From: a virus
Lineage: Duplodnaviria; Heunggongvirae; Uroviricota; Caudoviricetes
IMG/VR virus record: IMGVR_UViG_2671181011_000016
Direction: 5' to 3' (one strand)
DNA length: 53,208 bases
Below are positions 8,027 through 52,978 of this stretch, piece after piece. Position 1 is the stretch's first letter, and each line of letters starts with the position of its first letter. The notes beneath the pieces are model-generated. The model was not told the DNA's origin. It did not search any database and saw only the letters and a program-made list of their open reading frames with translations. The position numbers and the translations under genes are program-made.

Positions 8027-8700
8027 TTGTCAGATCTCCATATTGAATTGGTCTGTCGAACATACGCGGGCCGCATTTGCTCGCGGCGGCTTAACAGTCC
8101 GGCATTGTCATGATGCAAAACAGTGTTATCGCCCAGGTAAATCATCGCGTGACATGGGTCAGCGCCTTTAAACGGCTGACGGATAATCACATCACCAGGC
8201 TGAATGCTTTTCGCGTCAACCATGAAAAACCCGTTCAATGGCAGGTTTTTTATGTACAGGTTTTCCCCACGCAGCCACCACCCATCGTGGCGCTCAAAGT
8301 CCGGTAGATCCACGCCGCACAGGTGATAGGCATCACGGAAAAGCGAATAGCAATCTGTTTTCCCGTGCTCAAATTTACGGCCCAACAGGTGCGCCACCGG
8401 GCGGAATTTTCTAACCCTGCCACCGGAACACAAATACCACGGCAGGCCGGAAATAACCTGCTGTTGTCGATCCCGCGCTGACAATACCAATGAATCATTA
8501 GTATGTGAGTGGAAAACGGCTGTTATAACACCCAATTCGTCAGCTTTGATATAATCGTCAGGCGAGATTTTAAAGCTGTTGTGCGGCGTTTCAGACACGT
8601 TAGCGCACGGGTAAAAATAATCGTTATCTATCACCAGCCCGCACACTTCCTCGCGCGGGTGGGCTGCCGCATAGCGAATCATTTTATCTTCAAGTGCCAT
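7969..8700 (-). CDS. K: tail assembly protein, lambda K-like (JAMM/MPN plus NlpC/P60 domains)
   Basis: 243 aa; JAMM-like HSH..D motif (AVFHSHTNDS) and C-terminal Cys-containing NlpC/P60-like part; position between L and I. Confidence 0.7.
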   Translation of the reverse strand: MALEDKMIRYAAAHPREEVCGLVIDNDYFYPCANVSETPHNSFKISPDDYIKADELGVITAVFHSHTNDSLVLSARDRQQQVISGLPWYLCSGGRVRKFRPVAHLLGRKFEHGKTDCYSLFRDAYHLCGVDLPDFERHDGWWLRGENLYIKNLPLNGFFMVDAKSIQPGDVIIRQPFKGADPCHAMIYLGDNTVLHHDNAGLLSRREQMRPAYVRQTNSIWRSDKCSSLDLRAIFEDITAKCV

Positions 8701-9407: not shown

Positions 9408-9460
9408 TTTATCACCTTGTCATTTTGTGATCTCAATCACGCTAAATCATGCCAAAACGG

Positions 9461-9489
9461 TTGATCGCGTTTTTTACAATATGTATATT
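9461..9489 (+). promoter_or_regulatory. sigma70-like promoter of moron cassette A
   Basis: -35 TTGATC, 17-bp spacer, -10 TATATT; about 17 nt upstream of the first + strand gene; an inverted motif variant ATCACAAAATG lies at 9421-9432. Confidence 0.5.
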
Positions 9490-9505
9490 GTACTCAAAAG
9501 GAAGC

Positions 9506-9691
9506 ATGGTTAACAAAATGGCGCGGAGGTGTGAAATGGATGATAAGGTGTGGAGGTTGGCGGTGTTCCTTGCGGATGGCAGGAAAATGACTGTGGCCCT
9601 GTATAAAGATGAAGGCGAGGCACTTACCGACGCGCTCTTACTCGCTGAAGACGAACGCGTTTTGGGGTACAGGATCGAACCTGTCAAATGA
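9506..9691 (+). CDS. hypothetical protein (moron A1)
   Basis: 61 aa; RBS AAAGGAAG before ATG; start chosen among three in-frame ATGs; no recognisable domain. Confidence 0.5.
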   Translation: MVNKMARRCEMDDKVWRLAVFLADGRKMTVALYKDEGEALTDALLLAEDERVLGYRIEPVK

Positions 9692-9705
9692 GAGGTTAAC
9701 GAAAA

Positions 9706-10056
9706 ATGCAAAAATACTCGTTAGAAGTGTGGACCGATAAATGTGAATGGGAGCGCATGGGCCTGTTTGATACATATGTCGAAGCTCGTGATGAAGGTCG
9801 CGAATTGCTACGCTGTTGGTCTAACGCTCGTGATTTTGATATTACTCCGGTCCAAGTACCTGACAAGGTGGAAGAGATGAACCCGAAAGATATTAACTTT
9901 AACGTCAATGTTGAATTTGCAGGCTCTATGGATCAGGCTTGCCCTGGTGAAATCCACGCAAAAGGCTTCCCGGCTGACGATCCTGAGGCAAAACGCGAAT
10001 ACGAAAAAGCGGCGAAAGACTTCTGCATTGATAACCTGGGCGCGTTCGATAAATAA
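9706..10056 (+). CDS. hypothetical acidic protein (moron A2)
   Basis: 116 aa; RBS GAGAGG; rich in Asp/Glu; no recognisable domain. Confidence 0.6.
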   Translation: MQKYSLEVWTDKCEWERMGLFDTYVEARDEGRELLRCWSNARDFDITPVQVPDKVEEMNPKDINFNVNVEFAGSMDQACPGEIHAKGFPADDPEAKREYEKAAKDFCIDNLGAFDK

Positions 10057-10065
10057 GGCGGCAAC

Positions 10066-10314
10066 ATGGGGCGGCGCAATCACGGCGATTATGTGTACAC
10101 GTTGAAACAGGCCGCCCGCCTCGTCGGTTATCATGAGCACGAATTTATTGATTTGCTGATTGAGCGCGGGATACTGTACCAGGTATGTTTAACGCTGTAC
10201 CCGAAAGCAAAATACCTACAGGAAAAGTTATTCATCATCATGACGGATGAAAACCAGGTTAATCATTCATTCGTCACTGATAATGGCGTTAATTATCTGC
10301 GTGATAACTTATAG
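10066..10314 (+). CDS. hypothetical small protein with possible HTH (moron A3)
   Basis: 82 aa; RBS AAGGCGG; segment LKQAARLVGYHEHEFIDLLIERGIL looks helix-turn-helix-like. Confidence 0.5.
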   Translation: MGRRNHGDYVYTLKQAARLVGYHEHEFIDLLIERGILYQVCLTLYPKAKYLQEKLFIIMTDENQVNHSFVTDNGVNYLRDNL

Positions 10315-10322
10315 GACTGTAT

Positions 10323-10526
10323 ATGTTAAAGTACGACGGTCAAAAAATGGTTAGGTTTACGGGTTTTGCTAAAGGTAACAATAGAGAATTAACAGAGTAT
10401 TACAGTTTAAATATTGGTGACGTTTACCGCGTGGAAGAATGTCTGCATTCAATTAATTCTTTAATAATTATAAATAAAGAAAATCAAGGGGTGCTTGTTA
10501 CATTTAACGAAGTGGAGTTACCTTAA
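10323..10526 (+). CDS. hypothetical protein (moron A4)
   Basis: 67 aa; tightly packed after A3; AT-rich codons. Confidence 0.45.
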   Translation: MLKYDGQKMVRFTGFAKGNNRELTEYYSLNIGDVYRVEECLHSINSLIIINKENQGVLVTFNEVELP

Positions 10527-10616
10527 TCAATAAAGCGACGAAGTGATTGGAAATGTTTTGGTAGTGGTTGGCGCGATTGCCATCGTTTATGCCTTTCTGA
10601 GCTAATGGAGTGGATC

Positions 10617-10754
10617 ATGAAAATCGAAGTTTTAGCGCTAATCGCAATGGGCTTGATAGTATTTGGCGTGCACGCTGCGGATTGGGACTGGAGCGCAATA
10701 GCTGAGAATATGGCGCACGCTCACCCGATTGGATTAGTGCACATGAATTTTTAA
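10617..10754 (+). CDS. small hydrophobic protein (moron A5)
   Basis: 45 aa; N-terminal hydrophobic stretch IEVLALIAMGLIVFGVHA (signal/TM-like); RBS GGAGTGG. Confidence 0.45.
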   Translation: MKIEVLALIAMGLIVFGVHAADWDWSAIAENMAHAHPIGLVHMNF

Positions 10755-10795
10755 CACAAACCCCGCTTCGGCGGGGTGTTATAGGTAGGTGAGAT

Positions 10796-10972
10796 ATGAA
10801 AGAGGGTGTGACTTATCAGCATGTGTATACATTTGAAATTTACCGCATATGTGATGGTTATGTTGAAGAGTATAAAATCTTCCCCCGTGGATACTGGAAG
10901 AGAGTTAAGATTTCTGTAAGGTTATTAAAGAAAATGTTTAAAAAAGGATTAATTCAAGAAATTGATTTTTAG
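10796..10972 (+). CDS. hypothetical basic protein (moron A6)
   Basis: 58 aa; RBS AGGTGAG 6 nt upstream of ATG. Confidence 0.5.
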   Translation: MKEGVTYQHVYTFEIYRICDGYVEEYKIFPRGYWKRVKISVRLLKKMFKKGLIQEIDF

Positions 10973-11649: not shown

Positions 11650-11735
11650 GATTCCCCCTATAAGTTACATATTGCATACATCTTTACGCGCTTCTACGCG
11701 AAAAATGAGAAATTCATCACAAGAATTATAACCAG

Positions 11736-14768: not shown

Positions 14769-14811
14769 TTATACAAAATGGCTTCACTTCAACGAGTACA
14801 TTTTGTATAAA
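14769..14811 (+). promoter_or_regulatory. sigma70-like promoter of moron cassette C with upstream TTATACAAAATGG motif
   Basis: motif 14769-14781, -35 TTCACT, 17-bp spacer, -10 TATAAA (14806-14811); inverted motif copy CATTTTGTATAA overlaps the -10. Confidence 0.6.
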
Positions 14812-30908: not shown

Positions 30909-30916
30909 TTTGTGAT

Positions 30917-31740
30917 TCAGATCACGTTATTATCACAAGCGAAAGCCTCGCAACTTTCAGAACAACTACCTGAATCAAACTCTTTCTTGTTAATAATGCT
31001 GCTGCGTATCTCTTCTGTTTCCTCCAGCCTGAACATTGCTATTACGTCCTGCAATGCCATTTTGTTGCGATACATTTCCGGCTTACCTTCCTTGCAATCA
31101 TGTTCTGCAATGCAACTACAAAACTGGTCATATAGTTCAGGTTCATCCCTTGCTGCCAATGCCAACTTCTTGTTGCTCTTCTTAATGCAGAAAACACAAT
31201 TACCAAGATGTTCGGGGATCTCTAAATCAAATGACTGCCCTGACCACCAATCAATAATATCCTGCTTCTCAAAGTCACTTATATCTGCCAGATAGTGAAA
31301 ACCCTCCCTTTCGTGTAGTCTGCGTGGCTCATCTGCCCTAATACCTAACCAGCGTTCATAATTGCCTTTGCCATAGTGTTCATCACAATACTTTTCAAAA
31401 GGTAGTTGTTTCATCCTGTGAGTACAGAATGCCCCGCCGATATAAGGATGGCCATAATGTTCCAGGATTCTCCGCCACGGAACAAGGTCACATCTTATAT
31501 CATCAATACCAATGATCTCGTAACTGAATTTACCGTATTTAATTGCAGGAGGAACGCAGCGGAGGCAAGTTATTTTAATGTTAAAATGTGAGGATAAATT
31601 CTTTATGAACTCGTATGTTTTAGGGTGTTCACCCCTGTATCCATGAAGATAACCTCTGCGTCAGGGTGAATTTTCAATACCTCTAGAGTCATGCAAGCAG
31701 AAGTCCTTCCACCACTGAATGATATTACTTGATGTTTCAT
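30917..31740 (-). pseudogene. PAPS reductase-like (PP-loop ATPase family) gene disrupted by a 1-nt frameshift
   Basis: N-terminal frame MKHQVISFSGGRTSA...FMDTG stops after 45 codons; reading continues in another frame (EHPKTYEFIKN... to 30917); shift lies at a G4 run (31633-31636); a fifth G would restore FMDTGGEHPKTYEF. Confidence 0.65.
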
Positions 31741-34321: not shown

Positions 34322-34448
34322 TTAACGCGCTTGCCATACCCAATATCAATCGCGCTTCTGCACCAGTGACTTTCTTACACCATGCACCGCCCGTTTTATC
34401 TTCGAACAAGATAACGGCAAACTTATCGTTTATTTCCAGCTTATCCAT
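34248..34448 (-). CDS. hypothetical protein
   Basis: 66 aa ORF. Confidence 0.35.
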   Translation of the reverse strand: MDKLEINDKFAVILFEDKTGGAWCKKVTGAEARLILGMASALNDGELPAVPVEPVHIYGRSNDNEA

Positions 34449-35170
34449 TATTCACCCCGCGTCACTCGTTTAATTTCGTTATCTGCCCGCGCCTCTTCTT
34501 TGAACAATTCAGCAATGGCGTCTTCATAGAAAACCCGGTATTTCTTCCACCATGTTGATCGGCTTACCGGAAAAACAAGCTGATTAACCGCCTGCCGGAC
34601 AAGATCTACAGGGAAACGCGAGTACCCGCGCCCGCCGCAGTGATGGCACGTTTTGAACACTGGCATTTCCGCCGCTTCACTGGCTGCTTTATCCGGTACT
34701 TCGCCACGACCCTTGCATTGTTTACAATGATTGCGAACTGTCCCATGCCCCTTGCATTTTTTGCAAAGGTGTTTTTCTCCGTATTCGTCAAACGTAAATT
34801 TATATCCGCCGCACTCCACGCAAGTTTTTTCCGTCGCGGCACTCTGGCAATAATCCCGAAACGCGAAAACGGCAACAAGAATAATGAGATCATTGCGTTT
34901 GGCCTCGTCCAGTTCCATAACGTATTCATAATCTTTTGCCATAGCCCTTAAACGCTCTGTAAGCAAAACTACGGCCTTATGTTTTTCTGCTTGTGATAGT
35001 TCCATCTTCCCTAAAAAAGCACTGTAACCAAGCTCTACGCGCGATTGCGCCATACCTGCGGCAGTTAGTGCATCCGTAGTATTAAGCGCATCCGGGGACG
35101 TGCCCCGGCTTTCATCTGATAAACGCGGCGATTTTGGGAAGTGGAATTTTAGAATTGATTCCAAATTCAT
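34448..35170 (-). CDS. zinc-finger protein with four CxxCxGxG repeats; possible antiterminator Q (phage 82/21 type)
   Basis: 240 aa; CVECGGYK, CKKCKGHG, CKQCKGRG, CHHCGGRG; lies downstream of ninG/rusA as Q does in lambdoid phages; Q assignment is positional. Confidence 0.4.
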   Translation of the reverse strand: MNLESILKFHFPKSPRLSDESRGTSPDALNTTDALTAAGMAQSRVELGYSAFLGKMELSQAEKHKAVVLLTERLRAMAKDYEYVMELDEAKRNDLIILVAVFAFRDYCQSAATEKTCVECGGYKFTFDEYGEKHLCKKCKGHGTVRNHCKQCKGRGEVPDKAASEAAEMPVFKTCHHCGGRGYSRFPVDLVRQAVNQLVFPVSRSTWWKKYRVFYEDAIAELFKEEARADNEIKRVTRGE

Positions 35171-36781: not shown

Positions 36782-36940
36782 AATGCTCTCTCCTTTTCAG
36801 GTGATTTCTACGCATTTCAGCGCTGCCGGATTTTTAAAGAGCATTTCGTTTGCTTGAAGTATACAAAATGGATACACCAGAACAAGGCAAAAAGCGCCAT
36901 TATGTGATCTGTATCACGCAATGACGCCATTATGTAAACT

Positions 36941-40416: not shown

Positions 40417-40515
40417 CTTGTTTCCCTCCGTACCGTAAACCTTTTGATTTAAGTTTACAAAACGGATTCGCGATCACAGTACAAAATGTATAGCTATGTG
40501 ATCGCAATCACAATA

Positions 40516-43106: not shown

Positions 43107-43747
43107 TAACTGATCTCCCCTTTAAGCTCTTTTAAGCGAATGTCATAAACGTCTTTCGCTTTCTGCTGCTGCTCTGAATCTTTAGGCAGTAGTTTCCAGC
43201 ACTTCCCGAAGATCTCGCGTAACTTGTTAGCGTCCTGTGCTTTCGCTGCCGCATCACAGAAACGCGCTAACACCTCATCAGGATTTGGCGGCGCTTTCGG
43301 CGGCTGTGGTTGTTGTTTTGGTGGATTTTTCTGTTGGCGAGGCTGCTGGCCTGTCTGCTTGGCGTATGCGTCAGTATCAGGATCTCGCGCATCATCAATA
43401 CAGAACAATCCGTTCAACGCGTATTTACGCGCATAACTTGATGTCGCGCCAGTTAACTGGCTTGCGTCCATTCCCTTCTTGCTTTCTTCTTCCCTGGCGT
43501 AAGCAGTTACCGCAATTTCATCTTCGCCGTCGCTTAGTGTAGCCGTTGCTTTCACATAATAGCGATTGCCGATCAGGACAATTTCATCACTAACAGTCAG
43601 CGTGATATTTTGAAGCAGTGGTTTAACCGCCTCTAAAATATCCTCCGCCGACCTGTAATTATATCCACCAAAATTATTACGCTGATTTTTCGGCGCGTTC
43701 AGCGTTTGCTGAATCGTCCATAGCTTTTTATGTAACTCTGTTTTCAC
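43106..43747 (-). CDS. erf: ERF-family single-strand annealing recombinase
   Basis: 213 aa; N-terminal NFGGYNYRSAEDILEAVKPLL typical of Erf; adjacent to ssb as in P22. Confidence 0.75.
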   Translation of the reverse strand: MKTELHKKLWTIQQTLNAPKNQRNNFGGYNYRSAEDILEAVKPLLQNITLTVSDEIVLIGNRYYVKATATLSDGEDEIAVTAYAREEESKKGMDASQLTGATSSYARKYALNGLFCIDDARDPDTDAYAKQTGQQPRQQKNPPKQQPQPPKAPPNPDEVLARFCDAAAKAQDANKLREIFGKCWKLLPKDSEQQQKAKDVYDIRLKELKGEIS

Positions 43748-43896
43748 TATTTAATCTCCCGTGCTGTTAACACTATGTATAAGGCTTTATTCGCGGCGCT
43801 CCACATTTCGGCATCGTGAAGCATTTCCGCTACTGCCAGTTTGAATTGAAGCGCCTGAATAACCATAATGTCATCTCCGGACGTTTACATTTTGTA

Positions 43897-44187
43897 TTAA
43901 TGATAGCGGACTTTATCCAGGGGTTTTTCCCCTAAATGGCGTGGTTGCGTTGCGTGGTAGTAGCTGCCGCTTTCATTTTCCGTATACCATTTTACTGATC
44001 CTTTGCGACGTTCTTTAATGCTATTTGGTTTGCATCTTTCCTCGTTTGCAAATCGAATAGCTTTATCCACATTGTCTGTTTTATTGATTGCAGGTGATGA
44101 TTTTCTTTCGTTTTCTCTTTTTATCCTTCTGCGTTCCCTGGCATTCATTTTGCTATCACATTTACCATATATAATTGTAACGCTCAT
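43897..44187 (-). CDS. N-like transcription antiterminator (P22 gene 24-like)
   Basis: 96 aa; N-terminus MSVTIIYGK...NARERRRIKRENERK resembles the P22 N start and the arginine-rich motif of N proteins (from memory); first gene downstream of PL and nutL. Confidence 0.55.
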   Translation of the reverse strand: MSVTIIYGKCDSKMNARERRRIKRENERKSSPAINKTDNVDKAIRFANEERCKPNSIKERRKGSVKWYTENESGSYYHATQPRHLGEKPLDKVRYH

Positions 44188-44243
44188 AATCTGATCTCCG
44201 TATATCCTTGATGATACTTAATAAAAAATCATCTTCGTTAATT

Positions 44244-44281
44244 GCCGCACTTCCAGCGGCTGACCAGATTGTTAATGAGCG
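44244..44281 (-). promoter_or_regulatory. candidate nutL site (boxA plus boxB hairpin)
   Basis: minus strand CGCTCATTAACAA (boxA-like, cf. CGCTCTTA) then GCCGC-TGGAAGT-GCGGC hairpin (boxB-like), 60-100 nt upstream of the N-like ATG. Confidence 0.45.
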
Positions 44282-44535
44282 GCTTAACATCTTTCAACTA
44301 ATCCCGCAATCATCGCCGTTCCCGGCGTGACCTTGCTCACTCCAAGCAAGCTGACTCGTCGCCTTGCGTGCGGTTTCGTGGGGGATGTAACGCTTTAAAC
44401 ACCCCATGCGCCTTGTTATCAGTGCCGCTTTCGGTCCCCCATCGGGGAGTTACTCCACGGTTGACAAGGTGTTAAGCCTGATTTTTAAAGTGCCAGGAAG
44501 TTGCTTTTGTTACCTGCGCCCTTCCTTTGATTCGC

Positions 44536-44578
44536 AATATACGCCCCGTAAAACACCGAGTCAATCCATTTTGTATAC
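44536..44578 (-). promoter_or_regulatory. candidate PL promoter with upstream GTATACAAAATGG motif
   Basis: minus strand: motif (44566-44578), -35 TTGACT, 17-bp spacer, -10 TATATT (44536-44541). Confidence 0.55.
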
Positions 44579-44654
44579 TTTTTTAAAATATTTTATATGC
44601 CATTGATATTTAAATAATAAATAACGTTTTCTGTTTACGTTTTGGTGTTTTCCA

Positions 44655-44683
44655 GGCAAAGAAAAGCCGCCATTCGGCGGCTA
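44655..44683 (-). terminator. rho-independent terminator after cI
   Basis: hairpin GCCGCC-ATTC-GGCGGC immediately 3' of the cI stop, followed on the minus strand by TTTTCTTTG. Confidence 0.6.
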
Positions 44684-44687
44684 ATGT

Positions 44688-45335
44688 TTATGGCAGGTTT
44701 ACGATCTTCGCATCAACCACCACGCCTATAATTTTTGATTCTGGATTCATAGGGATTGGCGGATACAGCGGATTCAGCGAACGTAAAAGCCTTTGACCTC
44801 CATCAATAATCAACTGTTTAAACGTCGGTATCTGCCCTTCCTCAAGCTGGGCTATAACCAGTTTGCCGTCAATAGCTGGCGCGTGCGGGTCAACAAGTAT
44901 CATCGTCCCCGCCGGGATGCTCAACCCCTGCGGCGCGTTCATTGATTCACCTTTGGCAACCAGCCAGTAACTATCATCTGAACAAATAACGCTAGTCGTA
45001 ACGTGTGGTAATGCTGATCGCCTTGTGTCATCCATATTGTTTACTGTGTCCTTCCAGTCAATAACCGGGTAACTACCTAAATCACGCGGCGGTGCGGCCT
45101 GAAGTGTATTAGAAACAGAATCATCAATGACCATACCATCATGTGTAACAGTGAACTGCCGACGACCAAGCGCCCGCATAATCCGCGCAATATCTTCAAG
45201 ATTTGGCTCGCGGCGACCGTTCAGCCAGTGTGACAGGCCGCCTTTAGTTATCCCCATGAGATCTGCGAGTGAATCCTGACTCATGCCCTGCGCCCGCATG
45301 AGCTGCTTTGCTAAGTCATACCATTTTGTTTTCAT
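44688..45335 (-). CDS. cI: CI-type prophage repressor (HTH plus S24 LexA-like autopeptidase domain)
   Basis: 215 aa; N-terminal HTH (QDSLADLMGITKGGLSHWLNG); C-terminal GESM Ser motif and TFKQLIIDGGQRLLRSLNPLYP closely resembling the lambda CI C-terminus. Confidence 0.85.
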   Translation of the reverse strand: MKTKWYDLAKQLMRAQGMSQDSLADLMGITKGGLSHWLNGRREPNLEDIARIMRALGRRQFTVTHDGMVIDDSVSNTLQAAPPRDLGSYPVIDWKDTVNNMDDTRRSALPHVTTSVICSDDSYWLVAKGESMNAPQGLSIPAGTMILVDPHAPAIDGKLVIAQLEEGQIPTFKQLIIDGGQRLLRSLNPLYPPIPMNPESKIIGVVVDAKIVNLP

Positions 45336-45641
45336 GTCGCTACCCTATAACCTCAAAAAGTTTGATGCAAGTCACAAAACGTGTATTTTAAGCCTTGATC
45401 TTAAAATTCCATTTTGTAAACTTGCAGACAAGGTAAGGCCATACTTGCAAAGACGCAAGGAAAAAGATAACGGAAGGCACAAAAAGGCACTTACCTTAAG
45501 CTCTTTAAAAATCCGGTGTCGCTGCGAAGCGAAAAACAAATATCACGCAACGGCGGGATCTGTTCAGCGGTCAGTCACTGCTATCTAATGCTAATGGGAT
45601 GCCCGCCCGCGCGTTCACTCTAACCATAGGAGAAAAACAAG
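45336..45641. promoter_or_regulatory. immunity-region intergenic segment (divergent promoters / operators)
   Basis: 306 bp between divergent cI and rightward operon; CTTGC..GCAAG inverted repeats (e.g. CTTGCAAAGACGCAAG); motif copy TTTACAAAATGG at 45409-45420 (minus); exact -10/-35 boxes not resolved. Confidence 0.5.
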
Positions 45642-45896
45642 ATGAGTATGCACATGATGAATGAAGCATGGAACGTAAAACTTAACAGCCCGATCCAAAA
45701 ACTTGTCTTAATTGCGTTTGCAGAAAAGGCAGACAACAAAGGCCGCGCACATGCTTCACGCGAAGAGATCGCAAAAGTGTGCGAACTGCCACTGCATACT
45801 ACTGTTGACGCATTAAATTCATTGATCCGCAAAGGATTCATTAAACGCGCTGACGAATACGGCGACATTTATGACATTGCATTGCCGGAGGAATGA
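45642..45896 (+). CDS. HTH DNA-binding protein (first gene of rightward operon)
   Basis: 84 aa; RBS AGGAG; winged-helix/HTH-like segment ASREEIAKVCELPLHTTVDALNSLIRKGFIKR; not an obvious Cro. Confidence 0.55.
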   Translation: MSMHMMNEAWNVKLNSPIQKLVLIAFAEKADNKGRAHASREEIAKVCELPLHTTVDALNSLIRKGFIKRADEYGDIYDIALPEE

Positions 45897-45899
45897 TCT

Positions 45900-46958
45900 A
45901 TGAAGTGGTTTAAGCATGATAGCGATGCGAACCGCGATGAAAAACTTCAAAACGTTTTATTAGATTATGGCCTGGAAGGGTACGGGCTTTATTGGTATTG
46001 CCTAGAACTAATAACTTATGACGTAGATCAGCACAATCTAACTTTTGACCTACGACATGACGCAAGAATAATTGCGCGAAACGTCGGATCTACTGAAAAA
46101 CGTATAGAAGAAATGATGAAATACTTCATCGAAATTGGTTTGTTTGAATGTTCTCAAGGCCACATAACTTGTTTAAAGTTATTGAAAAGGCTGGACCAAT
46201 CAATGACTTCTAAAAGCGCTTACAGGGCCGCCATAAACACAGCGAAGGAGCAATTAAAATTAGAAAAGTTAATCAATCCAACACAAAAAGGTCATGATAG
46301 GGTCATGACCGGGTCAGGAAAGGGTCATGAATTAGAATTAGAATTAGAAGTAGAAAAAGAAAGAGAAAAAGATATATACACTTCGTGTATTGTCGAAAAT
46401 GAACAAAAAATGGTCAATCAGGATGGCGCAAACGAAGCGGCGTTGCGTTGCCTGGCCTTCTACAACGACAAGGCAGGATGCAAATGTCGTGATGCGAAGC
46501 CATTCATCGAACTACTGACAGAAACAAAAACACGTAAAGCGTATACGGAGGATGAGATCACATTAGTGATTGAGTGGGCTTTAACGCAATGGCGTAGCCG
46601 TGGTGGAACACCTAAGCCTATAAACATTTGCCGGGTAACTAAATTTGATGGGTATCTGGCTGATGCTGAAAAATGGCGCAAACTGTCAGCCACTGCAAAC
46701 GCTGCCGACGTAGTGGAGGCATTTAACAGCACGTTTGATGGCCTGTTGCCACCTGCCGAACTGGATCGGGATCTTGAACGCAAGATTTATGCGTTCACTG
46801 ACTACCTGAAAGACAAAAGCATCAACGGCTTTGTCGCCTACTTTGAAACGTTCAAAAACACGGCTTCAGATTTTTACTTCGGCAATGGCTTCACAGCGAC
46901 ACTTGATTTCCTTCTTAAACCAAAAACGCTACGTGATACACGATGTGGCGCTCTTTGA
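45900..46958 (+). CDS. replication initiation / replisome organizer protein
   Basis: 352 aa; N-terminus MKWFKHDSDANRDEKL...GLEGYGLYWYCLE resembles organizer-type N-terminal domains; contains phased iterons plus AT-rich tract like lambda O/ori. Confidence 0.55.
   Translation: MKWFKHDSDANRDEKLQNVLLDYGLEGYGLYWYCLELITYDVDQHNLTFDLRHDARIIARNVGSTEKRIEEMMKYFIEIGLFECSQGHITCLKLLKRLDQSMTSKSAYRAAINTAKEQLKLEKLINPTQKGHDRVMTGSGKGHELELELEVEKEREKDIYTSCIVENEQKMVNQDGANEAALRCLAFYNDKAGCKCRDAKPFIELLTETKTRKAYTEDEITLVIEWALTQWRSRGGTPKPINICRVTKFDGYLADAEKWRKLSATANAADVVEAFNSTFDGLLPPAELDRDLERKIYAFTDYLKDKSINGFVAYFETFKNTASDFYFGNGFTATLDFLLKPKTLRDTRCGAL
46288..46382. other. candidate origin of replication: four iterons with 11-bp phasing plus AT-rich tract
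   Basis: GGTCATGA at 46290, 46301, 46323 and GGTCAGGA at 46312 (exact 11-bp spacing), followed by ATTAGAATTAGAATTAGAAGTAGAAAAAGAAAGAGAAAAAGATATATA. Confidence 0.6.
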
Positions 46959-47091: not shown

Positions 47092-47193
47092 ATGGACGGT
47101 AAACACGTTTTCGCCCTGGCTTTTGCCATCGCTGCGGCAATCGCTGTTAACGTGGTTTTGTTCGGCGGTTTGTTCCTTCTTGTCAATCCATAA
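47092..47193 (+). CDS. micro-ORF encoding a 33-aa single-TM peptide
   Basis: MDGKHVFALAFAIAAAIAVNVVLFGGLFLLVNP; RBS AGAGAGGA. Confidence 0.4.
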   Translation: MDGKHVFALAFAIAAAIAVNVVLFGGLFLLVNP

Positions 47194-47325: not shown

Positions 47326-48069
47326 ATGTCTGAGTTGATGTGTTTTAATTTTGATGACAATAAAATCACTGCTGTAATTTATGATGGTAAACCTGCTTTT
47401 GTTGCAATGGATGTGGCGCGTGCGCTTGGGTACGCTACGCCACAAAAAGCTATCAAAGATCACTGTAAGTCATTGATAAAAATAAAATGTTCTGAAATGG
47501 AACATTTGGGATTCACTCCAATCCCGCAAGGCGTAACGCTAATCCATGAATCAGATGTTTACCGCCTGGTGATGCGATCAAAAATAGAATCGGCTGAGCG
47601 CTTCCAGGATTGGGTGTGCGAGGATGTTCTCCCTGCTTTGCGTGAAAATGGACATTACGGTTTTAAACCAGCTTTGCCGGATTTCACTGACCCGGTCGCT
47701 GCGGCTCGCGCATGGGCTGATGAGGTGGAACAAAAACTATTAGCACAGAAAGAAGCTGAACGGCTGGCGCTGGAAAACAAGGAATTAGCGCCAAAAGCGG
47801 CTGTCTGTGATGCGATTGTAAGGAACAAACAGTATCGCAACGCAACACAGGTTGCCAGGCCTTTGGGTATGACTGCTACGCAACTCAACAAAAAACTCGA
47901 ACAGGTTGACGTGTACGATACTCGAATTAAGCGCGGCGGGCGTATGTTCAAACAGTGGTTCGTAGATGAAGGCTATGGTGTGGTAAAATGTTCGGATGTT
48001 GGTTACGTACAATCACTATTTACTGCTAAAGGTCAGCTTTGGGTGTCTGAACTTTTTGCGTGTAAGTAG
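47326..48069 (+). CDS. antirepressor (Bro-N plus KilA-C/Ant-type domains)
   Basis: 247 aa from MSELMCFNFDD; RBS ACGGAG; N-terminal Bro-N-like segment (ITAVIYDGKPAFVAMDVARALGY), C-terminal antirepressor-like part. Confidence 0.65.
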   Translation: MSELMCFNFDDNKITAVIYDGKPAFVAMDVARALGYATPQKAIKDHCKSLIKIKCSEMEHLGFTPIPQGVTLIHESDVYRLVMRSKIESAERFQDWVCEDVLPALRENGHYGFKPALPDFTDPVAAARAWADEVEQKLLAQKEAERLALENKELAPKAAVCDAIVRNKQYRNATQVARPLGMTATQLNKKLEQVDVYDTRIKRGGRMFKQWFVDEGYGVVKCSDVGYVQSLFTAKGQLWVSELFACK

Positions 48070-48102: not shown

Positions 48103-49221
48103 ATGTCGCAAAGAAAAATCAGCGATGAGCAATTGATCGCTGAATACAACAACGGTTTAACGTACAAACAGATTGCTGAGAAGTACGGCATGTCTAAACG
48201 CAATGTCGAGCGCCTGGGCGCAAAACTGGCGAAACGTGGTTTATTATCAACACGCCGCGCGCCTGGTTTTGGCGTCAATGGCGAGTCGTTGCTAGTCGAT
48301 AAAAACGGCAATGTGATCATGCGCTGGATTAAAACAGCCCGTGACCGCGACGAAATGGAACAGTTAATGGAAGCGGCCCGCGACGCTTTCATGGATGAAA
48401 TACCACGCGCGGAGGCTGTGCCAGTGCCTGAAATTGATTTTCAAAAAAGCCTGGCCCTTTATCCGGTGTTTGATCTGCATATCGGGGCGCTTGCTCATAA
48501 AGCTGAATGCGGAGAGAGCTACGATACTGGGATCGCTGAGCGCGTGTTGAATGACTTCTTTGACTACGCCGTTGGCGCTGCTCCGATGTCTGAAAAAGCC
48601 GTTTTGCTTCTCGGTGGCGACCTGCTTCATTCTGACGGTATGGTCCCGGTGACGCCAATAAGCGGGCACATTCTTGATCAAGATAGTCGCTACGCAAAAC
48701 TTGTTTATGTGGCGATCAGGTCTGTCCGGCGGGCGGTAGGTAAAATGTTGTTAAATCATAAGGATGTTGAAATCCAGGTGTTATCAGGCAATCACGATCA
48801 GTCAGGCATGATTTGGCTACGTGCGGCGCTGGCGGCTTTTTACGAAGATGAACCGCGCGTGACGGTTGATGTGTCACCTGCTATCGTCCACCACACACAG
48901 TACGGCAAAACATTCCTTGCTTACCACCACGGGCACACTATCAAAAAGCCGGAAAATTTATTGTCTGCTTGCGTAGCTGACTGGCGTGAGGATTTTGGCA
49001 AGTCTGCGGCGGTTTACGCTCATTGCGGGCACTGGCACCATCAACGGCTGATTGAATCATCGCTAGGCGTTGTTGAGTATCACGGCACATTAGCGGGTAA
49101 AGACGCTTATTCAACTAATGGCGGCTGGCGGTCGCGGCGTCTGGCGGCGGTGGTTATTTACAGCCCGGATCATGGGGAGATCGGGCGCTTTGTTTATTAC
49201 CCTGAATTTTCCATTTTGTAA
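48103..49221 (+). CDS. HTH-domain protein fused to a calcineurin-like metallophosphoesterase domain
   Basis: 372 aa from MSQRKISDEQ (RBS GGAGGG); N-terminal HTH (LTYKQIAEKYGMSKRNVERL); phosphoesterase motifs DLHIG, GGDLLH, GNHD, HHGH. Confidence 0.55.
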   Translation: MSQRKISDEQLIAEYNNGLTYKQIAEKYGMSKRNVERLGAKLAKRGLLSTRRAPGFGVNGESLLVDKNGNVIMRWIKTARDRDEMEQLMEAARDAFMDEIPRAEAVPVPEIDFQKSLALYPVFDLHIGALAHKAECGESYDTGIAERVLNDFFDYAVGAAPMSEKAVLLLGGDLLHSDGMVPVTPISGHILDQDSRYAKLVYVAIRSVRRAVGKMLLNHKDVEIQVLSGNHDQSGMIWLRAALAAFYEDEPRVTVDVSPAIVHHTQYGKTFLAYHHGHTIKKPENLLSACVADWREDFGKSAAVYAHCGHWHHQRLIESSLGVVEYHGTLAGKDAYSTNGGWRSRRLAAVVIYSPDHGEIGRFVYYPEFSIL

Positions 49222-50731: not shown

Positions 50732-51289
50732 ATGAGCGCTGAAATTGAAACAAAAATTATCAATATCCTTGAACTTGATGGCATCGCAACAATGCACCAG
50801 TTACGCCAGAAAACAGGGTTATTGGCTTGGTATGATAAGGATGGAATCATGCCTGAGACAATTAAACACTTAATAAAAAACGGCATCGTCGAGCGCGTGT
50901 ATACATGTTTTGGACGCCGCCGCCGCCTGCTGGGTTATCGCATTAAACAGTTATATGCTGAACGTCGTGAGCGTGTTGCGTCGTTATTTGGTGACTACAG
51001 CGTTAAAAAACGTATGCGCGACATTAGCGCTGAGACTGGTATCCCGTGGAATTATCTTTCTCGTACTCTTCGCCTAATGGTGATTGATGAAACACTTTGC
51101 GTTGATCCAAATAGGCACGGAGTTAACTTTTACTCACTGTTTAAACCTGGGCGATTCGGTCACGCTAATGATTTGGCGTTTGACTTTGACAGCCGCCTGA
51201 ACGAATACCGGAAAAATAACGGCCTGCTACCTGATAAACCAGTGTTTGAGATTGAAAAACTTAACGGTGAAACGGGGTTGGAATTATGA
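50732..51289 (+). CDS. hypothetical protein with N-terminal winged-helix-like segment
   Basis: 185 aa; RBS ACGAGG; no recognisable catalytic motif. Confidence 0.5.
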   Translation: MSAEIETKIINILELDGIATMHQLRQKTGLLAWYDKDGIMPETIKHLIKNGIVERVYTCFGRRRRLLGYRIKQLYAERRERVASLFGDYSVKKRMRDISAETGIPWNYLSRTLRLMVIDETLCVDPNRHGVNFYSLFKPGRFGHANDLAFDFDSRLNEYRKNNGLLPDKPVFEIEKLNGETGLEL

Positions 51290-52318: not shown

Positions 52319-52978
52319 ATGAATAAACTTAAAGTAATTGGCGTGATTAGCCATCGTACTAACCCTGAGTGTTACCCATCGTTTGAGGTAACAACATGCC
52401 GCACAGAATATAATTTTGGATCATGCTATTTAATGGGCATTCGCGCTGACACTGGCGGCACTTATTCTGTTATGGCTGCAAGCTGGAAATTTGAAAAATA
52501 CGATGATTTATCGAATAAGGATGATGACGGCATGAATAAAGAAAGTGAAGTTGTTGATGAATTAATCGAAGACGAACGCCGTGACTGCGAAACGAAACAA
52601 GAAAAAACGGAATGGAAGCCAGGAGAAAAGCCGCCGTGCGGCGTGTGGCTTGAATGTTATTATCCTGATGGTTATCTAGTTGGGATTGTAATGTTTAAAT
52701 TTGTCGGTGATAAATTCGGTGTGTACACTGAAAAAGGCAGTAAACAGCAAGAACATACTATTGATTGGGGTTTTTGTAATTATTTTTTATATGTTGACCC
52801 GAAAGAAAAAGCACTTGCTGAAATCGCGTTTGCACTTGCTATCAAAGTTATGGGTGAAGACGCGGCAAAAGAGATTGACTTTAACCATGACAATGATTTT
52901 TCGTGCGATTATCGCAATATGGCGCAAGCTATTATTGATGGATGTATCGGACACGTTGAATACACGGGGAAAAGATAA
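52319..52978 (+). CDS. hypothetical protein
   Basis: 219 aa ORF; no recognisable domain. Confidence 0.5.
   Translation: MNKLKVIGVISHRTNPECYPSFEVTTCRTEYNFGSCYLMGIRADTGGTYSVMAASWKFEKYDDLSNKDDDGMNKESEVVDELIEDERRDCETKQEKTEWKPGEKPPCGVWLECYYPDGYLVGIVMFKFVGDKFGVYTEKGSKQQEHTIDWGFCNYFLYVDPKEKALAEIAFALAIKVMGEDAAKEIDFNHDNDFSCDYRNMAQAIIDGCIGHVEYTGKR

Follow-up and report, generated by a model that had tools for sequence, protein, structure and literature searches.

Immunity Regions with and without cro

The cI/cro pair of phage λ is the textbook bistable switch, and the locus described here is a λ-type repressor locus in which no cro is found. It lies in a 53,208-nucleotide stretch of DNA of a tailed virus (IMG/VR record IMGVR_UViG_2671181011_000016), the whole of which is called the window below, and comprises a leftward repressor gene, the DNA flanking it, and the first genes of the rightward operon. 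The closest described phages are those of the mEpimmI group, reported in 2025 as coliphages that are Nus-dependent yet non-lambdoid and that have a single immunity type (PMC11893012). According to the same paper, Rep021, the repressor of phage mEp021, blocks infection by six mEpimmI phages when expressed alone, that is, it confers immunity; the group is not inducible by ultraviolet (UV) light, which is linked there to the missing A111-G112 in Rep021; and one nut site, nutR1, lies upstream of gp17 and another, nutL, upstream of the repressor gene. In that paper, "cro" is confined to the introductory description of λ and to the domain name "Cro/CI-type HTH" (HTH, helix-turn-helix), and operators go unnamed. 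Already published are the phage group with its repressor, the missing cleavage site, and the nut sites. PMC11893012 does not report that cro is absent, what gp14 is, that the Ant slot is a mosaic, or that a cro-containing sister lineage exists, and it gives no predictions of operators and promoters like those made here.

We propose, with a probability of roughly 0.7, that the locus is the immunity region of a temperate coliphage of the mEpimmI group (mEp021-like) in which the λ-type cI/cro pair has been reduced to the repressor alone. The immunity region of the window is 92–99.7% identical to those of mEp515, mEp021, mEp010, and MagusPhagus, the 99.7% being the value for MagusPhagus, which is an isolated phage. 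The repressor, Rep, is of the Rep021 type, with 94–98% identity to the mEp phage repressors, and it is accompanied by a Gp17 N-like antiterminator and by three nut sites at the positions given in PMC11893012. For comparison, we assembled 49 phages and prophages whose repressors are 91–100% identical, i.e., of the same immunity; these are the relatives referred to below. Gene identities, the absence of cro and cII, homology breakpoints against the cro-containing sister lineage, allele covariation, and motif statistics were computed directly in the analysis; promoter start sites, the binding of Rep to its motif, and commitment without Cro are what we infer.

In the orientation of the window, the order of N, PL, a terminator, and cI, followed by PRM and PR, is λ-like. 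As in λ, a homologous CI repressor gene is flanked by predicted divergent PRM and PR promoters and probably has a leaderless mRNA, PL and an N-type antiterminator lie beyond cI, and both early transcripts carry a nut site and then lead into replication genes with a probable internal origin. Unlike λ, the window has neither cro nor cII, the rightward nut site is in an untranslated leader, the repressor is without Ala-Gly, and the operator candidates are short, weakly symmetric, and dispersed, with apparently two at OR as against the three 17-mers of λ. Phage mEp021 is like the window in its succession of N-like gene, terminator, Rep, leader with nut, gp14, and gp13, in its three matching boxA copies, and in lacking Ala-Gly. 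It is unlike the window in having another gp14/gp13 allele and in carrying a zinc-ribbon gene where the window has a Bro-N/KilAC gene.

The Repressor

44688–45335, minus strand: Rep, CI-like repressor of 215 amino acid residues (Pfam HTH_3 and Peptidase_S24)

Rep has an N-terminal Cro/C1-type HTH (Pfam HTH_3, 5e-13, residues 10–57) and a C-terminal Peptidase_S24 domain (4.4e-19). Residues 15–208 align to λ CI (3BDN, E = 1e-19), and in that alignment the catalytic Ser (KGESM) and Lys (TFKQL) are retained. The protein also matches PHROG_4, a transcriptional repressor family (1.8e-41), and is 96% identical to Rep021. By analogy with Rep021, for which the experiment exists, Rep is expected to confer superinfection immunity. 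Its recognition helix, ITKGGLSHWLNG, is invariant among the 49 relatives with one exception.

The original prediction, made from the letters of the window alone, saw a clear cI with an HTH, an S24 autopeptidase, and a λ-like C-terminus. The domains, the alignment to 3BDN, and the Ser/Lys dyad agree with this, but the label of autopeptidase is doubtful because the self-cleavage dipeptide, Ala-Gly at λ A111-G112 (or Cys-Gly), is replaced by Thr-Val in Rep (codons at 45048–45053). The dipeptide is polymorphic within the immunity group, as follows: TV in 30 of the 49 relatives, AG in 5, AV in 4, AA in 4, VV in 3, and VA in 3. Since Ala-Gly is kept in five of them, some same-immunity prophages, for example RM9245 and E21845 of E. 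coli, may still be SOS-inducible, while most would not be; L004, L005, and three others are the relatives noted in this connection.

Absence of cro and cII

The gap between Rep and the first rightward gene, gp14, is 306 bp. It is 89–99.7% conserved in 35 complete E. coli genomes, in none of which is a gene annotated by PGAP within it. In 30 distinct versions of the gap, surveyed on both strands, there is no conserved plus-strand open reading frame (ORF), since indels of 1 and 2 nt break every plus-strand frame. The 101-residue ORF called in the gap of MagusPhagus is among the frames so broken. A minus-strand frame with its stop near 45374 is open in 29 of the 30 versions, but its length and start vary and it has no HTH potential, and it is not considered a gene.

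The whole 53-kb window was searched in six frames by tblastn with three Cro proteins and one CII from more distant homologues of the repressor, and with the Cro proteins of λ, 434, and P22. The sole match to these Cro and CII queries in any frame was the HTH of Rep itself (E = 1e-6 to 1e-8); the next-best E values were 0.06, with the P22 Cro, and 0.4 or more with the Cro proteins from the repressor homologues. Scanned against PHROG and Pfam, some 45 early ORFs to the left and right (about 30 early-left plus those of the right operon) likewise gave no Cro/C1-type regulator; the families seen there were N-like, Q-like, Erf, SSB, Abc2, methyltransferases, NinB, NinG, RusA, and DnaB. The window is without cro and without cII. 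The earlier reading that the 306-bp gap holds no convincing cro is borne out by the ORF survey, the PGAP annotation, and the tblastn search: no conserved plus-strand frame came out of the small-ORF check, and the sensitive search returned the HTH of Rep only. The accompanying suggestion, that the switch is wired differently from that of λ, is supported in that cro is found neither in the divergent slot nor elsewhere in the window. In the place of cro there is a leader.

45429–45641, plus strand: untranslated leader of the rightward operon, about 210 nt, with no conserved ORF; 89–99% conserved in the 35 E. coli genomes
45500–45532, plus strand: nut site of the rightward leader (nutL of mEp021), consisting of boxA GCTCTTTAAAAATCC and a boxB-like hairpin TCGCTGCGAAGCGA; nearly invariant

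An Rfam search of 43800–46100 gave no match at E values up to 1. The fold predicted for the leader (218 nt) is no more stable than those of shuffled sequences (z = −1.06), so there is no evidence of a structured RNA beyond the boxB hairpin and a 5′ palindrome, and a scan of the leader and right operon found no terminator between the nut site and gp14.

Sister Lineages That Keep cro

The nearest repressor homologues outside the immI group all belong to classical cI/cro pairs. In L175–L177, a lineage of mEp-like phages (repressor P0144), the repressor is 55% identical to Rep, its helix 3, ITKGGLSHWLNGRREPN, is the same as that of Rep, and Ala-Gly is likewise absent. A 75-residue HTH_3 gene, cro, lies 124 bp from the repressor gene, between PR and the nut site, and boxA/boxB follow it. 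L175–L177 share the backbone of the window, with int, NinB, DnaB, a 370-residue protein, a Rha/ANT slot, and the replication gene, and with the N-like gene, ERF, and SSB on the other side. They are homologous to the window in PR, PRM, the operator-like sites, and boxA/boxB, and differ from it in the 75-residue HTH_3 cro, in the 124-bp intergenic region, and in having no gp14. More distantly, L178 has a repressor 50% identical to Rep with a 74-residue HTH_3 gene 98 bp away, and L053 a repressor 38% identical, where an HTH_3 cro and a CP76-family CII precede an HTH_36 initiator.

The homology with L175 stops and resumes around cro. That is, window positions 45305–45435 align to the L175 operator region at 68% identity (E = 5e-14), a stretch that begins at the repressor start, takes in the two promoters, and ends shortly beyond the PR start (about PR +1), and the homology resumes at boxA/boxB, window 45500–45539, at 77%. 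Between these segments, the 228-nt cro of L175 is absent from the window, and about 65 nt of unrelated sequence stand there instead. The nut site at 45500–45532, homologous to the boxA/boxB of L175, is placed differently: in L175 it comes after cro, as in λ, whereas in the window it is within the untranslated leader. With homologous operator DNA, the same recognition helix, and cro kept in one member and absent in the other, the two lineages form a natural experiment that bears on the contribution of Cro to commitment after induction, the shut-off of PRM, and the turn-down of early transcription.

Promoters

43897–44187, minus strand: N-like antiterminator, Gp17 homologue (PHROG_271, 1.3e-13; synteny with mEp021 gp17)
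44479–44493, minus strand: boxA-like GCACTTTAAAAATCA in the PL leader (nutR1 in mEp021 nomenclature), from the boxA search
44536–44564, minus strand: PL-type early leftward promoter, near-consensus TTGACT-17-TATATT, upstream of the nut site and the N-like gene (top position weight matrix score, 16.5 bits)
44665–44682, minus strand: intrinsic terminator just 3′ of the repressor gene (t1 of mEp021), from a terminator scan; annotated in mEp021 and mEp515
45342–45370, minus strand: candidate PRM-like promoter, TTGCAT-17-TAGGGT (weight matrix scan); predicted start at the A of the repressor ATG (45335)
45395–45422, plus strand: candidate PR-like promoter, TTGATC-16-TAAACT (weight matrix scan), with a start near 45429

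The hexamers of PL are invariant and its spacer variable in seven relatives, and the two gap promoters show the same pattern, with hexamers in invariant blocks and spacers that vary. Equivalents with the same geometry are present in L175: TTGAAC-16-TAAACT upstream of cro (PR) and TTGAAT-17-TAGGAT (PRM). The predicted PRM and PR starts are divergent and about 94 bp apart. The position of its predicted start suggests that the repressor mRNA made from the PRM-like promoter is probably leaderless, as at λ PRM. An alternative PR, TTGATG-16-TATTTT at 45362–45389, was set aside, as its −10 is out of register in relatives. A further exact copy of the rightward boxA is found at 36828–36842 on the minus strand.

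Operator Candidates

44565–44579, minus strand: M2-OL operator candidate AGTATACAAAATGGA, abutting the PL −35; invariant in relatives
45366–45379, plus strand: M1-OR, a weaker operator-like site TGCAAGTCACAAAA, overlapping the PRM −35; inverted partner of M2-OR (inverted repeat I2); conserved
45408–45422, minus strand: M2-OR operator candidate AGTTTACAAAATGGA, overlapping the PR −10 and spacer
45444–45459, plus strand: CTTGC..GCAAG palindrome CTTGCAAAGACGCAAG (N6), covering roughly +16 to +31 of the transcript predicted from PR

The best element common to OL and OR is AGT(A/T)TACAAAATGGA, with 14 of 15 positions shared, which was equalled in 2 of 200 shuffles. The L175 equivalent of M1-OR reads CACAAAATGG. 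A 13-mer version, GT[AT]TACA[AG]AATGG, has 13 copies in the window against 0.17 expected, and its sites are kept at orthologous places in mEp021 even where the flanks differ. A degenerate core, TAC[AG]WWW[ACT]G[GT], which is often an 11-bp palindrome, TACAnnnTGTA, was then counted in L053, L178, and L175, whose repressors have recognition helixes very similar to that of Rep:

L053: 34.8 per kb in OR/OL, 0.61 per kb elsewhere
L178: 22 per kb in OR/OL, 0.16 per kb elsewhere
L175: 9.8 per kb in OR/OL, 0.74 per kb elsewhere

The enrichment in OR/OL over the flanks is thus 13- to 140-fold. Because the element is shared between OL and OR, overlaps or abuts the promoters, and is enriched in the operator regions of three independent homologues of the repressor, the TACAAAATGG-type sites are most likely the operators of Rep, as far as sequence comparison can indicate. 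In a scan of IMG/VR for the operator-like 16-mer, the multi-copy loci were all on mEpimmI contigs and the singletons were chance-like.

The original prediction had instead named CTTGC..GCAAG inverted repeats, here and near PL, as candidate operators. A palindrome search in both regions does find these repeats, but they are weak as operator candidates, and the TACAAAATGG-type element is better shared between OL and OR. The second copy, at 44332–44350 (N9), lies some 190 nt downstream from PL and is not retained in RM9245 or E21845; the spacings, N6 and N9, differ; and two such matches also arise in 12 of 100 shuffles. The copy at 45444–45459 keeps its TTGC..GCAA arms in 47 of 48 relatives and forms a predicted hairpin in the leader fold. 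It may be a 5′ hairpin of the RNA or a binding site.

The motif is also dispersed. AGT(A/T)TACAAAATGG(A/C), taken as a 13–15-mer, has 17 copies genome-wide at up to three mismatches against 2.0 expected, at positions that include 11735, 14769/14797, 30896, 36859/36927, 39891, 40453, 48073, and 49211, in addition to 44565 and 45408. Five copies abut a σ70-like −35 at a fixed distance. Two of the motifs, at 11734(+) and 14768(+), are followed by TTCACA-17-TATATA and TTCACT-17-TATAAA, respectively, both upstream of opposite-strand accessory genes in the tail region. Perfect 11-bp TACAWWWTGTA palindromes occur at 9475–9485, 14797–14807, 40480–40490, and 43886–43896; they represent the symmetric form of the core. 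One of them immediately follows the N-like gene, and another is flanked by a predicted −35 and −10 (40467–40489).

gp14 and the Replication Module

45642–45896, plus strand: gp14 homologue, a stand-alone winged helix of 84 residues (Pfam HTH_36, 1.8e-07)
45900–46958, plus strand: replication initiator, gp13 homologue (Pfam, PHROG), with a variable N-terminal Lin1244_N domain, internal iterons, and a conserved C-terminal domain
46290–46330, plus strand: four iterons, GGGTCATGA-like, at 11-bp spacing, within the initiator gene

The first gene of the rightward operon occupies the position of cro: it is small and divergent from cI, yet a nut-bearing leader of about 210 nt intervenes. The earlier note held that its 84-residue winged-helix product does not look like Cro, and this was upheld by the HTH_36 match, the predicted fold, and the structural comparisons. 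Weaker Pfam matches are to DnaD_N, MarR, and TrmB. The AlphaFold (AF2) model (pLDDT 86.6) has a helix-helix-β-helix-helix-wing topology, and its best Foldseek matches in the PDB are the DNA-binding domains of CooA/CRP, RbkR, AspA, TrmBL2, MarR, and Fur, with no Cro in the top 50. A sequence search of the PDB with gp14 returned only a spurious match to YopM repeats and a weak one to CooA. Thus gp14 shows no homology to the Cro family in sequence or fold. In contrast, its eight PHROG matches are all to replication-initiation, O-like, or DnaD-like loader families and cover residues 1 to about 72 (best, phrog_4617, 8e-19). When 1.84 billion representative proteins were searched exhaustively, 122 remote homologues came up, of which 84 are at least 180 residues long and align to gp14 at their own N-termini.

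Variation among the relatives, the strongest line of evidence, points the same way. At least four allele types of gp14 are found with the same immunity, with the putative recognition helixes LHTTVDALNSLIRKG, VHTVHDAFAALMDKG, VNTVMVAIDGLTHKG, and LRDTISALHQLKRSG. Identity from type to type falls to 35% (mEp021 type against window type) while the Rep HTH and the intergenic DNA are essentially constant, and the break in similarity between the window and mEp021 types is at the gp14 start codon. The mEp021-type gp14 goes solely with an HTH_36-type initiator (6 of 6), and the remaining types solely with the Lin1244 type. The initiator is itself a mosaic, its C-terminal 180 residues being conserved and its N-domain being either Lin1244_N (window type) or a gp14-like HTH_36 (mEp021 type). 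In three of the 49 relatives (L031, L033, and L048), gp14 is absent and the initiator gene directly follows a leader of about 305 nt. A Cro would be expected to vary with its operators; the gp14 alleles, as read from these alignments, appear to vary with the initiator over constant Rep and operator DNA. Because its alleles swap with the initiator N-domain while repressor and operators are invariant, we assign gp14 to the replication module: judged by its homology to initiator N-termini and its linkage and exchange with an iteron-bearing initiator gene, gp14 is a stand-alone version of the N-domain with which replication initiators bind the origin, part of a replication-origin specificity module, and not a Cro.

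The iterons were compared in two initiators, those of the window and of mEp021. At the same place, mEp021 has different iterons, GGTAGTGGCA-type repeats that are visible as a repeated peptide in its protein. In the window, the iterons at 46290–46330 are followed by AATTAGAA repeats and an A/T-rich stretch, to 46360. The region 46290–46360 is a probable replication origin on the strength of these repeats.

The Bro-N/KilAC Protein and Its Slot

47326–48069, plus strand: Bro-N and KilAC (Ant-type) protein (Pfam Bro-N, 1.4e-21, and ANT, 7.6e-10; PHROG Ant families)

The original prediction suggested that the switch might rely on an antirepressor at 47326–48069. The protein there does have Bro-N and KilAC domains, but the suggested role was not upheld. 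The slot that it occupies, between gp13 and a conserved 372-residue protein, holds a gene of the Bro-N/ANT or Rha type in about 17 of the 49 relatives, a zinc-ribbon protein in about 15, and a third gene type in 5, and is empty in 8, MagusPhagus among them. The gene lies inside the repressor-controlled rightward operon with no evident promoter of its own, and a search for CTGT-N8-ACAG found no LexA box in the whole window. Thus the protein has the domains of an antirepressor but is not conserved together with the repressor and has no LexA box for inducible control of its own. Since the slot is mosaic or empty in relatives and there is no LexA box, we conclude from the gene comparisons that the Bro-N/KilAC protein is not the switch component of this group; in the phage of the window it may still play an accessory part.

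The 370-nt gap that precedes the slot holds a strongly hydrophobic ORF of 33 residues, MDGKHVFALAFAIAAAIAVNVVLFGGLFLLVNP, at 47092–47193 (+). It is also annotated in mEp515 and MagusPhagus, has no family match, and could be a small membrane peptide or a toxin. A second protein with the KilAC domain, of 82 residues and KilAC (ANT) only (Pfam, 1.1e-05), is encoded at 10066–10314 (+), within an opposite-strand accessory cluster (9449–10972) between tail genes, and is a homologue of mEp021_71, a "putative antirepressor".

A Switch without Cro

We propose that the locus would work as follows. Rep bound over the PR −10, at the TACAAAATGG-type site there, would shut PR, and the near-identical site abutting the PL −35 would act on PL. 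The weaker site over the PRM −35 makes negative autoregulation by Rep probable, and Rep itself would be transcribed, probably without a leader, from the weak PRM-like promoter. Where there is no repression, be it in a newly infected cell or upon rare spontaneous loss, PL would yield Gp17, which would act at three nut sites, namely those of the PL and PR leaders (the latter at 45500–45532) and the one at 36828–36842. Antiterminated transcription would then proceed into the replication module and later into the Q-like gene (34448–35170) and the late genes. Lytic development would thus owe its advance to Gp17-dependent antitermination instead of being locked in by Cro, and nothing in the sequence substitutes for the repression of PRM by Cro. 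Without Cro, CII, or a cleavable repressor, and in a group reported as not UV-inducible, this suggests a simpler switch that is largely decided at infection.

Several points weigh against this proposal. The promoter starts and Rep sites are no more than predicted, and neither PR nor PRM has perfect hexamers. The TACAAAATGG-type motif is weakly palindromic, which is unusual for a CI-type dimer, and several of its copies are beside the −35 hexamers of promoters unrelated to immunity; the motif could alternatively be an upstream element of promoters or be bound by a different protein. In addition, the PR operon does begin with gp14, whose product has a DNA-binding fold, so that a secondary regulatory role is possible, and the relatives without gp14 are metagenomic or prophage sequences that may not be viable. 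Finally, there may be a Cro analogue of a non-homologous type, such as one of the small early proteins without known function or the 76-residue HTH_23 protein at 52978–53208.

Three other explanations were weighed. It is improbable, in our estimation, that gp14 is a non-homologous but functional Cro that binds the operator region, for instance at the TTGC..GCAA palindrome at 45444–45459, and lowers repressor synthesis. λ Cro is itself an α+β, winged-helix-like protein, gp14 is a small DNA-binding protein in the position of Cro, and the well-kept palindrome just downstream of the predicted PR start could serve it. However, the same repressor and operator DNA go with at least four allele types that have different recognition helixes, the alleles covary with the initiator N-domain type across a junction at the gp14 start codon, the gene is missing in three relatives, all of its family matches are initiator N-termini, and the variants of the palindrome do not follow the gp14 type. 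We judge it equally improbable that another part of the genome supplies a Cro-like function through a protein without detectable homology. Many early ORFs have no known function and several conserved right-operon proteins carry HTH motifs, the candidates being one of the small early proteins, the HTH-bearing 372-residue protein (48103–49221), a MarR-like protein of 185 residues (50732–51289), and the 76-residue HTH_23 (Xis-like) protein (52978–53208), which would act like Apl or Cox, since in phages 186 and P2 the excisionase doubles as a Cro-like regulator. Yet none of these genes adjoins the operators, and outside Rep no HTH_3/Cro-family signal is present in the six frames of the window.

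A third alternative, which takes up an example given in the original prediction, is that the Ant protein replaces Cro: firing of PR would yield Ant, which would inactivate Rep, and this double-negative loop would commit the phage to lysis. A non-proteolytic way of inactivating Rep would make sense for a repressor without a cleavage site in a group that is not UV-inducible, the gene has Bro-N/KilAC domains, matches PHROG Ant families, and is within the Rep-controlled operon, and in the sister locus L175 two operator-like sites precede the Rha/ANT gene. Nonetheless, we consider this the least probable of the three. The slot is mosaic among the 49 relatives and empty in a set that includes the isolated phage MagusPhagus, the gene has neither a LexA box nor an evident independent promoter, and Bro-N/KilAC proteins are often labelled antirepressors without evidence. 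Moreover, cro coexists with an Ant-type gene in the sister lineage, which means that neither stands in for the other. Loss of cro with the repressor left alone thus remains the reading we prefer, and with it two tempting misreadings are corrected, namely that a Cro analogue is encoded right after the repressor gene and that the annotated antirepressor belongs to the core of the switch.

Antirepressor-controlled prophages offer one further comparison. Tum of coliphage 186, like the Gifsy system, exemplifies control by an antirepressor that is itself controlled by LexA. The Gifsy-1, Gifsy-2, and Gifsy-3 prophages resemble the window in having no RecA-mediated self-cleavage of the repressor and an Ant-type gene in the genome; their antirepressor gene is under LexA control, whereas the window has no LexA box, its Ant gene is inside the repressed operon, and the gene is dispensable across the group (PMC3121763 for Gifsy). 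The operator and promoter predictions given above are supplied for a group whose operators are left undefined in PMC11893012.

A second comparison is with repressors that act at dispersed operators. P1 C1 and gp71 of mycobacteriophage L5, with its "stoperators", are repressors of this kind. Like the window, these systems have no Cro, no SOS cleavage, and a short, asymmetric motif at about a dozen places in the genome, often at promoters. Unlike them, the window has a λ CI homologue as repressor, binding at the dispersed copies is predicted only, and the orientation of the motif relative to transcription is not uniform. Many of the dispersed sites abut the −35 of other promoters and are centered near −43, the geometry of λ CI at PRM; promoters of opposite-strand accessory genes in the tail region are among them. 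We offer tentatively, as a possibility that is less likely than the loss of cro itself, that Rep resembles the P1 and L5 repressors, recognizing a short, weakly symmetric site, TACAAAATGG, at PR, at PL, and at some ten other conserved positions across the genome. This would make Rep a genome-wide regulator and the switch a one-protein switch without Cro or SOS cleavage, in which commitment is made by N-type antitermination. If so, Rep would silence the early promoters and perhaps activate lysogenic-conversion genes.

Other Features of the Window

Just downstream of the N-like gene, a 39-residue ORF at 43747–43866 (−) has a weak match to λ Kil that falls below the Pfam threshold (E = 2e-4; 21.2 bits, where the cut-off is 27.6).

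Perfect GTGAT-N4-ATCAC palindromes are found at 9427–9440, 30912–30925, 36904–36917, and 40498–40511, and also at 8323–8336 inside a gene. Their context, TGTGA-N6-TCACG, is like the CRP consensus, and there are eight matches with at most one mismatch against 1.7 expected. The palindromes lie in intergenic promoter regions, and two precede predicted starts by about 60 bp, a position like that of class I CRP sites. This arrangement suggests that cAMP-CRP, or a phage protein of the same specificity, may control several phage promoters, one of which drives the operon of the KilAC-only protein.

The last ORF of the rightward operon, at 52978–53208 (+), encodes 76 residues before it is cut by the end of the window and matches HTH_23 (Pfam, 5.5e-07). 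Because its mEp021 homologue adjoins the integrase, this protein is probably of the excisionase type.

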